A DNA stretch of 64,000 nt from assembly GCF_041248615.1 (NCBI RefSeq), contig NZ_CP158426.1. One strand, given 5' to 3'. This DNA comes from Escherichia coli. GTDB taxonomy: Bacteria; Pseudomonadota; Gammaproteobacteria; Enterobacterales; Enterobacteriaceae. The notes beneath the pieces are model-generated. The model was not told the origin of the DNA, made no database searches, and saw only the letters and a program-made list of their open reading frames with translations. This document shows positions 24,801 to 27,800 of this stretch, piece after piece. The translations under genes were made by a program, and so were the position numbers. Numbering within the stretch: position 1 is the first letter of the stretch; the number at the start of each line of letters is the position of its first letter.

Positions 24801-27800
24801 AAAGTGCATGTAGCAAAGTGAGATGTGCCGTAGACGCATCAGCATTGACATTAATTGATGTGCTAAGCGTGGAGCTACCATTTTCCAGACTGGCCTCAAC
24901 GGTATCTGGTCTCGCTCCTGATTCTATCGAGGAGCGGGTATTGGTATAAGTGACGGTAGCCTTACCCTGTTCGTTCGTTACGGCTTGGCCGCCATTCGTC
25001 ATTTCGGCAGAGTTTGTTCTGCTGGTGAAGTTCACAGTCACACCTTTCACCGGAAAGCCATTATTATCAACGACTGTGGCGGTAATGACGCTGCCGGTGC
25101 TGTTCTGCGGGGTACCGGCGAATATGCTGTCTGGGACAGGCGTCAACTCGATAATTTTTGCCGCCGCTGTGTCGCCAATAAAATGCACAGTTTTGTTGTC
25201 GCTGGCACCAGTATTAGCCAGTGATGCAGTGACCGTCTGCTCACCAAAGGCAACGCCTGCGAGAGTGGCCTGCGCGATGCCAGACTCATTGGTATTACTT
25301 TCCCCTGGGGTCAGGGTGAGTCCTGAAGAAGCTGTGCTGAATGTTACCGGAAGATTGTTCACCTCATTGTCGAACTGATCTTTGACCGTTGCAGTTAGCG
25401 TTGCGCTATCGACGCCATTACCTGTTATCTCATTTTTTGATATCTGCAGGACAACCTGAGCCGAGGTTTTGTCCGCCACAAACGTTACCGGCTGCGAATC
25501 ACTGGTATTGTTATTACTCAGCGTTACGGTAACCGTATGCGTGCCCGCTTTTTTGCCTTTGAGGGTGACATGCGCTTCGCCATTGGCCTGAGTGATGGCA
25601 ATACCGTTATTTTCGAGGGTAAAGTTTGCCGCAACGTCCTGTGGCATGGTGAAGTTCACCGTTATTCCCGCCACCGGATGATTCGACGGATCTTTCACCG
25701 TTGCCGTCAGCTGCACGCTGTCGCTGTTATTCGTCACCACCTGTTGAGCAGGGATATTCAGCGTGACCTGCGCGTTGCTGGCATCGGGCGCAATATTGAC
25801 TGTCTTCGTATCGTTGTTGCCGTTAGGCAGTGTGGCTTCGGCTGTATGAACACCCAAAACCGTGCCCTTAAGGGTAACTTCAGCAACACCACTGTCGTTT
25901 GTATTGCTCGTGCTCTGACTAAGTTGTGTATCAGCCGGGTTAGTACTAAAGGTGACCGGTAGATCTATTACTACGTTATCAAAAGGATCTTTCACTGTTG
26001 CTGTCAGCGTTGTCTCATCCACGCCATTCCCAATGATTTCCGCTTTCGAGGTTTGCAGAACGACAACTGCGCTGTCCTTATCCGCCACGAATGTGACTGG
26101 CTGCGCATCGCTGGCATTATTGTTACCCAGCGTTGCGGTAACCGTATGCGTGCCCGCTTTTTTACCTTTGAGCGTGACATGCGCTTCCCCATTGGCCTGA
26201 GTGATGGCAATACCGTTATTTTCGAGGGTAAAGTTTGCCGCAACGTCCTGTGGCATGGTGAAGTTCACCGTTATTCCCGCTACCGGATGATTTGACGGAT
26301 CTTTCACCGTCGCCGTCAGCTGCACGCTGTCACTGTTATTCGTCACCACCTGTTGAGCAGGGATATTCAGCGTGACTAGCGCGTTGCTGGCATCGGGCGC
26401 AATATTGACTGTCTTCGTATCTCTGTTGCCGTTAAGCAGTATGGCTTCGGCTGTATGAACACCCAAAACCGTGCCCTTAAGGGTAACTTCAGCAATACCG
26501 TTCTCATTAGTATTACGCGCGTTCAGACTCAGTTGCGTGTCTGCGGGAGAGGTGCGGAAGACTACTGACAGATTTTTAACCACGTTATCAAAAGGATCTT
26601 TCACTGTTGCTGTCAGAGTCGTCTCATCCACGCCATTCCCAATGATTTCCGCTTTCGATGTTTGTAGAACGACAACCGCTCTGTCTTTATCCGCCACAAA
26701 CGTCATTGGCTGTGCATCGCTGACATTGCTGTTAGCCAGACGAGCCGTGATCATATGCGTGCCCGCTAACGTGCCGGTCAGGGAGGCGATTGCAACCCCG
26801 TTACTATCCGTCATGCCTTTTCCGCCGTTGCTAATCGAGAACCGACTTGCGACGTCGTTTGGCACAGAGAAGGTGATTTCTTTATCTTTTAGTGGGTTGC
26901 CATTTTTATCCTGCAAGGTTGCAGTCATATGTAGCGGAGCTGTGTTGGTGACGGTGATATCACCTGAAGGCACACTGAGGGTCAGGGCAGCAGTACTTTG
27001 ATCACCGATAAAATTCACCTGTTGATTAGCCTGGGAACCAGAGCTCACAGAGGCCGTAACCGTATAATCACCATTTTTCAAACTGGTCAGCGTAGCTGTG
27101 GCGATCCCGTCGTGGCTATTCACTTCGGTTTGGCTCAGTTTCGCTGCTGCTGAATTAACATTGAAGGTGACCTTGACGTCATTGAGCAGGTTGCCTTTTG
27201 CATCCCGGACTGTCGCGGTCATTGTGGCGCTGTCATTGCCGTCAGCGACCACTTCATTTTTCGACTTCTGCAGATCAACCTGTGCGGTACTTGAGTCACC
27301 GACAAAACTGACGATTAACGTTTGTTTCACGCCATTTTCAAGGGTGACTTCAACCGTGTTGTCTTCCTGCTTACTACTTTTCAGATCAAAAGTCGCCAGA
27401 CCATTAACATCCGTTTTTGCGGTGTTTTGATTGTTAAAGGAAGTTGCCGATCCGCTTAATACCGCAAACGTGACGGTATGATCATTGATTGGGTTGCTTC
27501 CCTCATCAGCGACATTGACCGAGACGGTGTTTGCTGCATTCTCATTGGCGAGCACACCATTATTGCTGGCAGATAATGTCGCAATTTTCGCTGACTGCGG
27601 GTTGGCGTCGATGATAAATCCAGCGGTATGCAAATCTTCATTCCAGTTTTGCATTAACAGCTTCGCAGTAAGCCCACTGCCTTTGGTATAGGCGGTATAG
27701 GTTGCTTTATAGACGCCATCTGCGGTTTCTTTCCAGTCTGTAGTGACACCAGGTTTCACGTTGTCGATGCTGACTGCAGTATTCAGTTGCTGTTTTTGCT

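Follow-up and report, generated by a model that had tools for sequence, protein, structure and literature searches.

The subject of this analysis is a tandem repeat within yeeJ, a gene for an inverse autotransporter adhesin, located in a 64,000-nucleotide stretch of the Escherichia coli contig NZ_CP158426.1 (assembly GCF_041248615.1), here called the window. The gene, named as yeeJ in the original prediction and confirmed as such by its Pfam architecture (an IAT_beta domain followed by a Big_1 array) and by its chromosomal site, lies between a GT9 gene/shiA and asnT/mtfA, as it does in K-12, EDL933 and strain 362; the neighbours on the shiA side are those of these three strains, while the asnT side holds an inserted island. 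The domain structure is described here from the intact allele of strain 362 (NZ_OW967178.1), which measures 7983 bp, encodes 2660 amino acids and carries 19 immunoglobulin (Ig)-like domains, a count obtained with a domain hidden Markov model (HMM) built from the YeeJ protein itself. PF11924 (IAT_beta) matches amino acids 144-419 with 376.8 bits (cut-off 22.3), which identifies the N-terminal beta-barrel of an inverse autotransporter, and the passenger is a tandem Ig-like array with 848.9 bits for Big_1 across 17 stretches and 484 bits for Invasin_D3. The C-terminal tip gave sub-threshold matches alone (Invasin_D4 at 24 bits and Intimin_C at 17.5 bits, each with a cut-off of 27), and a Pfam scan at E≤0.01 lists no LysM family; a LysM domain of YeeJ was reported and tested in Martinez-Gil et al. 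2017 (PMC5595812). The gene, its repeat and the two lesions that interrupt it are as follows.

21837-29802, minus strand: yeeJ, inverse autotransporter adhesin gene, a frameshifted pseudogene in the window (match to strain 362, Pfam, RefSeq)
25469-26767, minus strand: whole repeated stretch, 2.13 head-to-tail units of 609 bp (blastn self-match and identity profile)
26159-26767, minus strand: unit 1, from the tail of domain D5 through the whole of D6 to three quarters of the way into D7 (gene nucleotides 3036-3644, amino acids 1013-1215)
25550-26158, minus strand: unit 2, from the D7 tail through the whole of D8 to three quarters of the way into D9 (gene nucleotides 3645-4253, amino acids 1216-1418)
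25469-25549, minus strand: partial third unit of 81 bp, the D9 tail, which matches the start of unit 2 at 84% identity (blastn self-match)
24785-24786, minus strand: 16-bp deletion relative to strain 362, the first frameshift, after which the frame stops at 24769-24771 after 1677 codons
24389-24390, minus strand: second frameshift, from the loss of 1 bp compared with strain 362

Comparison of the region with itself by blastn paired 25469-26158 with 26078-26767 at an offset of 609 (E=0; 88.4% identity in an alignment of 692 columns), and a separate repeat search of the window again returned a spacing of 609 bp. Since other in-frame offsets reach just 25-35% identity, against 88% at 609, a chance origin of this match is excluded, and the silence of Tandem Repeats Finder, which called no repeat, is not evidence against it because the maximum period of that program is 500. 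The two adjacent copies of about 609 bp that had been placed at 25528-26745 are thus correctly located and correctly spaced, although the repeat runs a further 59 bp and 22 bp beyond those limits, and they are not near-perfect as had been claimed: the two halves, 25528-26136 and 26137-26745, share 89.2% identity, with 66 mismatches in 609 positions and a longest exact run of 92 bp. In the register of the units the difference is 70 of 609 bases (88.5% nucleotide identity), and at the protein level 25 of 203 residues differ while 178 match (87.7%), in a gapless alignment.

The expectation of a unit of about 203 amino acids of Big-domain sequence was borne out, as 609 bp encode two Ig-like domains of alternating length (D6 with 99-100 and D7 with 104-105 amino acids, repeated as D8 and D9), and the Pfam-predicted Ig-domain assignment of the repeat is unambiguous. 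Equally sound was the view that the copies resemble each other far more than their neighbours do, with D6 and D8 84% and D7 and D9 94% identical in amino acid sequence and every other YeeJ domain pair at or below 57%; the D5 tail is also similar to the D7 and D9 tails. These values derive from a protein matrix and ungapped offsets, as global DNA alignments of single domains are uninformative (background about 70%), and from the domain HMM and pairwise alignments, which were used in place of blastp of the whole protein against itself, where the identity match alone was returned. A sequence search of the PDB with D6-D9 gave no match at E≤0.001.

The age of the duplication was assessed by comparing units from six alleles of unrelated strains, namely strain 362 (identical to the window), EDL933, GF43, NCTC9038, PCN033 and VCSW5; the one-unit, frameshifted allele of WWCOL-256 was left out of the ungapped site comparisons. 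First units group together across the six strains, as do second and third units, and unit 1 is 94-98% identical between strains as against about 88% to unit 2 of its own strain. The synonymous divergence (dS) between units 1 and 2 is 0.37, whereas for the complete genes of strain 362 and EDL933 it is about 0.10 and orthologs range from 0.05 to 0.21. Thirty-seven differences between the units are common to strain 362, EDL933 and GF43, the alleles that defined them, and the same 37 are found again, apart from a few exceptions, in NCTC9038, PCN033 and VCSW5. As the units cluster by position across strains and paralog dS exceeds ortholog dS, the duplication evidently predates the divergence of the six compared alleles and is not the recent event that had been proposed.

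The distribution of the unit was surveyed in 5,426 complete E. coli genomes. The repeat region is found in about 2,910 of these, the D6/D8 body in 1,279 and a unit-to-unit junction, which marks at least two units, in 1,226; a single D6-type place, the one-unit class, accounts for about 56 genomes and three units as one colinear 2,240-bp match for about 29, with the two-unit form kept in about 1,190. The one-unit yeeJ of SHP24 (7398 bp, 2465 amino acids, 17 domains) lacks the self-repeat, and three-unit alleles were found in GF43 (8616 bp), PCN033 (8613 bp), VCSW5 (8613 bp) and NCTC9038 (8591 bp). In NCTC9038 all 54 mismatches between units 1 and 2 fall at or below unit position 271 and all 19 mismatches between units 2 and 3 at or above 306, so that the middle unit equals unit 3 over positions 0-305 and unit 1 over 272-609 with zero exceptions. 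It thus reads as a perfect chimera of unit 2 on the left and unit 1 on the right, exactly the unit predicted by unequal crossover in a two-unit parent. The crossover interval of this allele (NZ_LR134082.1, locus 3085-11675), at 272-305, marks a recent event, and the gene is frameshifted as well. Units 2 and 3 of GF43 and PCN033 are 94-99% identical along their whole length, which indicates an earlier and separate origin of their third unit.

Long homologous blocks would permit occasional unequal homologous recombination, yielding one-, two- and three-unit alleles, and these alleles together with the NCTC9038 chimera uphold the suggestion that the repeats allow the adhesin stalk to expand and contract, albeit through rare events. 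Alleles that differ by whole units at one locus and a chimeric unit at the recombination junction, both seen in yeeJ, characterize a copy-number-variable repeat. A phase-variable or contingency repeat would be expected to show near-identical units and frequent change within clones; the yeeJ units are 88% identical and the classes old. Changes in unit number are rare, the allele classes are old, and this is not a fast-switching locus.

Variation in yeeJ extends beyond the repeat. GF43, SHP24 and PCN033 have a second form of the distal half, which exceeds the strain 362/EDL933 type by 21-24 bp and shares about 89% identity with it, and since the one-unit allele and some three-unit alleles have this form in common the gene is mosaic outside the repeat also. 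EC2001 (NZ_CP133811.1) retains a frameshifted remnant of 4757 bp, and both O157:H7 Z1813 and DS26-1 have IS3-family insertions within the repeat region; yeeJ seems to be often inactivated in the population.

The long and short forms of yeeJ have been described previously. Martinez-Gil et al. 2017 (Sci Rep 7:11326, PMC5595812) distinguished two variants, represented by MG1655 and UMN026, which are separated by a 906-bp fragment encoding three additional Big domains and composed of repeated sequence. The corresponding features in the window are these.

25711-26616, minus strand: 906-bp segment without counterpart in the K-12/MG1655-type short allele (boundaries ambiguous by 23 bp; 25688-26593 is equivalent)
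26593-26616, minus strand: LTATVKDP-coding motif in D6, left junction of the K-12 deletion
25687-25710, minus strand: LTATVKDP-coding motif in D9, right junction of the K-12 deletion

The K-12 gene matches 21837-25710 and 26594-29802 in two segments that overlap by 23 bp, with 906 bp missing, and the long allele has 19 Ig-like domains against 16 in K-12, that is, three extra Big domains. As this difference matches the published fragment, the finding is already known: the window carries the UMN026-type long variant of yeeJ, an ordinary feature. The crossover in K-12 falls inside an 11-bp exact match, GTGAAAGATCC, within the LTATVKDP-coding motif common to D6 and D9, and the K-12 domain at this place is therefore chimeric, with a D6 head and a D9 body; recognition of this chimeric Ig domain in the reference allele is an addition of the present analysis. 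A separate deletion, in frame and joining the motifs of two unlike domains, would have produced the short allele, with the loss of 906 bp from a two-unit parent or 297 bp from a one-unit parent. The deletion junction is directly visible in the alignment, and from the absence of the D6/D8 body in K-12 we infer that the short allele is the derived form.

The best account of the data is that a two-Ig-domain module of the extracellular YeeJ stalk was duplicated in tandem long ago (D6-D7, D8-D9) and has been inherited stably since, the form present here being the published long allele, and to this we assign a probability of about 0.9. With each unit, two further Ig-like domains would separate the outer-membrane beta-barrel from the predicted C-terminal lectin-like tip, and on this domain architecture the number of units would set the length of the stalk. 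The extra Big domains were proposed by Martinez-Gil et al. 2017 (PMC5595812) to carry the tip possibly beyond other surface structures. For the window itself the significance is little, as this is a common long allele of a characterised adhesin gene which is inactivated here, while the four length classes and the clean evidence of unequal crossover are relevant to typing of yeeJ by polymerase chain reaction (PCR) product size and to short-read calling.

The repeat is also a mosaic with respect to identity between its units, the parts of unit 2 concerned being the following.

25550-25878, minus strand: unit positions 280-609 of unit 2, a block with high identity (96%) to its counterpart 26159-26487
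25879-25978, minus strand: unit positions 180-280 in the D8 body, a divergent patch with 67% identity to the D6 counterpart 26488-26587 and differences fixed across strains
26059-26158, minus strand: unit positions 0-100 in the D7 tail, a divergent patch with 80% identity to the D5-tail counterpart 26668-26767

Units 1 and 2 are 79% identical over unit positions 0-100, 97.5% over 100-180, 70% over 180-280 and 96% over 280-609, whereas orthologous units between strains are 97%, 97-98%, 94-96% and 95.5-96% identical over the same intervals, so that in the blocks 100-180 and 280-609 the identity between units equals that between strains. The D7/D9 block has a dS of 0.17 and the divergent parts one of 0.48-0.73, and the non-synonymous divergence (dN) is raised to 0.13-0.16 in the patches; as dS also differs between blocks, protein-level selection alone does not explain the pattern. 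Most likely, exchange between units by gene conversion would keep about 410 of the 609 bp at 95-97% identity, and two patches of about 100 bp would remain position-specific while the rest is homogenised.

A more far-reaching account would make of these observations a two-Ig cassette array with repeated independent changes in copy number (at least two origins of three-unit alleles, the one-unit class and the K-12 deletion), with conversion homogenising about two thirds of the unit, selection holding the two patches of about 100 bp, and stalk length tuned, for instance, to the thickness of O-antigen or capsule. We regard this account as tentative and somewhat doubtful; if it were true, the published two-variant picture would be incomplete.

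A number of points weigh against the interpretation of an old duplication with exchange between its units. The counts of the census are indirect, being differences between BLAST match counts, and are blurred by a few genomes through pseudogenes and IS-disrupted alleles, and the multi-unit strains analysed in detail number only six. Almost no diagnostic sites occur above unit position 271 and none to the right of the K-12 junction, and either direction of change between one and two units, as well as either a one-unit or a two-unit parent of the K-12 allele, would be compatible with such sites. As to a function of stalk length, no difference in biofilm assays or other phenotype was found between long and short yeeJ (Martinez-Gil et al. 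2017, PMC5595812). Gene conversion between the units is read from the identity pattern, and the blocks of high identity could also have come from a duplication of lesser age, with the two patches imported afterwards.

This last alternative, a duplication of about the age of the alleles with later replacement of the patches by recombination with a divergent yeeJ-like sequence, or with diversifying selection, is the most durable of the rivals, though we consider it unlikely. Identity between the units at the between-strain level in the blocks 100-180 and 280-609 is what a duplication of that age would give, and the joint rise of dN and dS in the patches is compatible with imported sequence. The patch differences, however, are fixed in every strain examined and both patch types occur in all multi-unit alleles, so that any import must predate all of them; a donor of the patches was not identified, and NCTC9038 shows that exchange between units does occur, with its junction in the interval 272-305.

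That the duplication is recent, born in this strain or lineage, is very improbable: the two units are indeed far closer to each other than to any other YeeJ Ig domain, and the block 280-609 reaches 96% identity between them, but 66-70 mismatches per 609 bp, the 37 fixed differences common to three alleles, the reciprocal monophyly of the units across strains, a paralog dS of 0.37 against 0.10 between alleles and the same structure in about 1,226 genomes from many lineages all speak for the old duplication. Weakest of all is the notion that the second copy is an assembly artefact or the true copy number mis-assembled, a practically negligible prospect even though repeats exceeding the read length can mis-assemble and the window derives from one assembly, as the independent assembly of strain 362 is base-for-base identical across the whole repeat, 14 records agree with the window to at least 99% over 25000-27300, two or more units occur in about 1,226 complete genomes, and about 70 differing sites make the copies easy to distinguish. 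For the same reason the anticipated collapse in short-read assemblies is a limited risk rather than a major concern, with 66-70 mismatches per unit.

The frameshifted state of yeeJ in the window had not been mentioned in the original prediction. Over 7,966 aligned bases, both units included, the gene is 100% identical to that of strain 362, with 17 bases missing; both deletions lie downstream of the repeat and split the gene into three open reading frames (ORFs), leaving no intact frame. Among the 5,426 genomes both deletions are shared only by NZ_LT599825.1 (NRZ14408), the one record with a 100% match to this stretch, where RefSeq annotates yeeJ as frameshifted. The 1-bp deletion could be a sequencing or assembly error, and unless both deletions are such errors a full-length adhesin is, as judged from the assembled sequence, not encoded in the window; at most a 1677-amino-acid YeeJ product, without the distal stalk and the predicted tip, could be made in this strain. 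Two plus-strand ORFs within the repeat, at 25537-25962 and 26471-27001, were rejected as spurious, as they have no Pfam match and lie antisense to the conserved coding frame.

Elsewhere in the window, the GT9 gene beside yeeJ (20523-21575; yeeL in K-12) is annotated as frameshifted in K-12 and GF43, whereas both the window and strain 362 have it intact. Homology to strain 362 ends at 30130, 16 bp into tRNA-Asn (asnT), and is followed by a large island, 30131-64000, which harbours an IS3 fragment and genes for UbiD/UbiX, ArdC, GT32/GH16, HchA, MobC, a coupling protein and a VirB-type type IV secretion system; the island has the appearance of an integrative conjugative element that entered at asnT. 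At about 32.4-38.4 kb it carries a candidate defence system consisting of a ComEC-like protein with an 'ABC-three component system' and an AAA ATPase. The stretch 5198-16000 is a small degraded island between yeeO and yeeN: after a second tRNA-Asn (5198-5273) come an integrase with a frameshift, a fragment of a second integrase and the core protein of an RHS element (about 10735-14916), accompanied by a TPR protein.

With regard to known systems, the closest is the UMN026-type long yeeJ, which is the same gene at the same chromosomal site with the same 906-bp fragment. Where that description has two variants, the complete genomes contain at least four length classes (K-12-type, one, two and three units), the natural period is 609 bp, or two domains, rather than 906 bp, and the window copy is frameshifted. 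The yeeJ of K-12 MG1655 (annotated as 7077 bp and 2358 amino acids) is 95.5-97.6% identical in nucleotide sequence outside the indel and has the same flanking genes, and it differs in lacking 25711-26616, in its chimeric Ig domain and in having 16 domains instead of 19. Intimin, invasin, FdeC, IatC/IatD and YrIlm resemble YeeJ in having an N-terminal beta-barrel, an Ig-like stalk and a lectin-like tip, the last being predicted for YeeJ; within YeeJ, as compared with other Big_1 inverse autotransporters, most domains are 20-57% identical and only the D6-D7/D8-D9 pair is recognisable as a DNA repeat. The tandem Ig domains of Yersinia ruckeri YrIlm are cited as almost identical (Wrobel 2018), and variability in repeat number was not found for IatC and IatD (Goh 2019); the literature searched on yeeJ with repeats or copy number held nothing further than the 2017 and 2019 papers. 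The stalks of the Bap/Esp, group B Streptococcus (GBS) alpha C/Rib and SasG types are also built of whole-domain tandem units, with in-frame gain and loss and polymorphism in stalk length. Their repeats are typically over 95-100% identical and vary frequently. The yeeJ units, unlike these, are about 88% identical and are present in one to three copies as old and stable classes.

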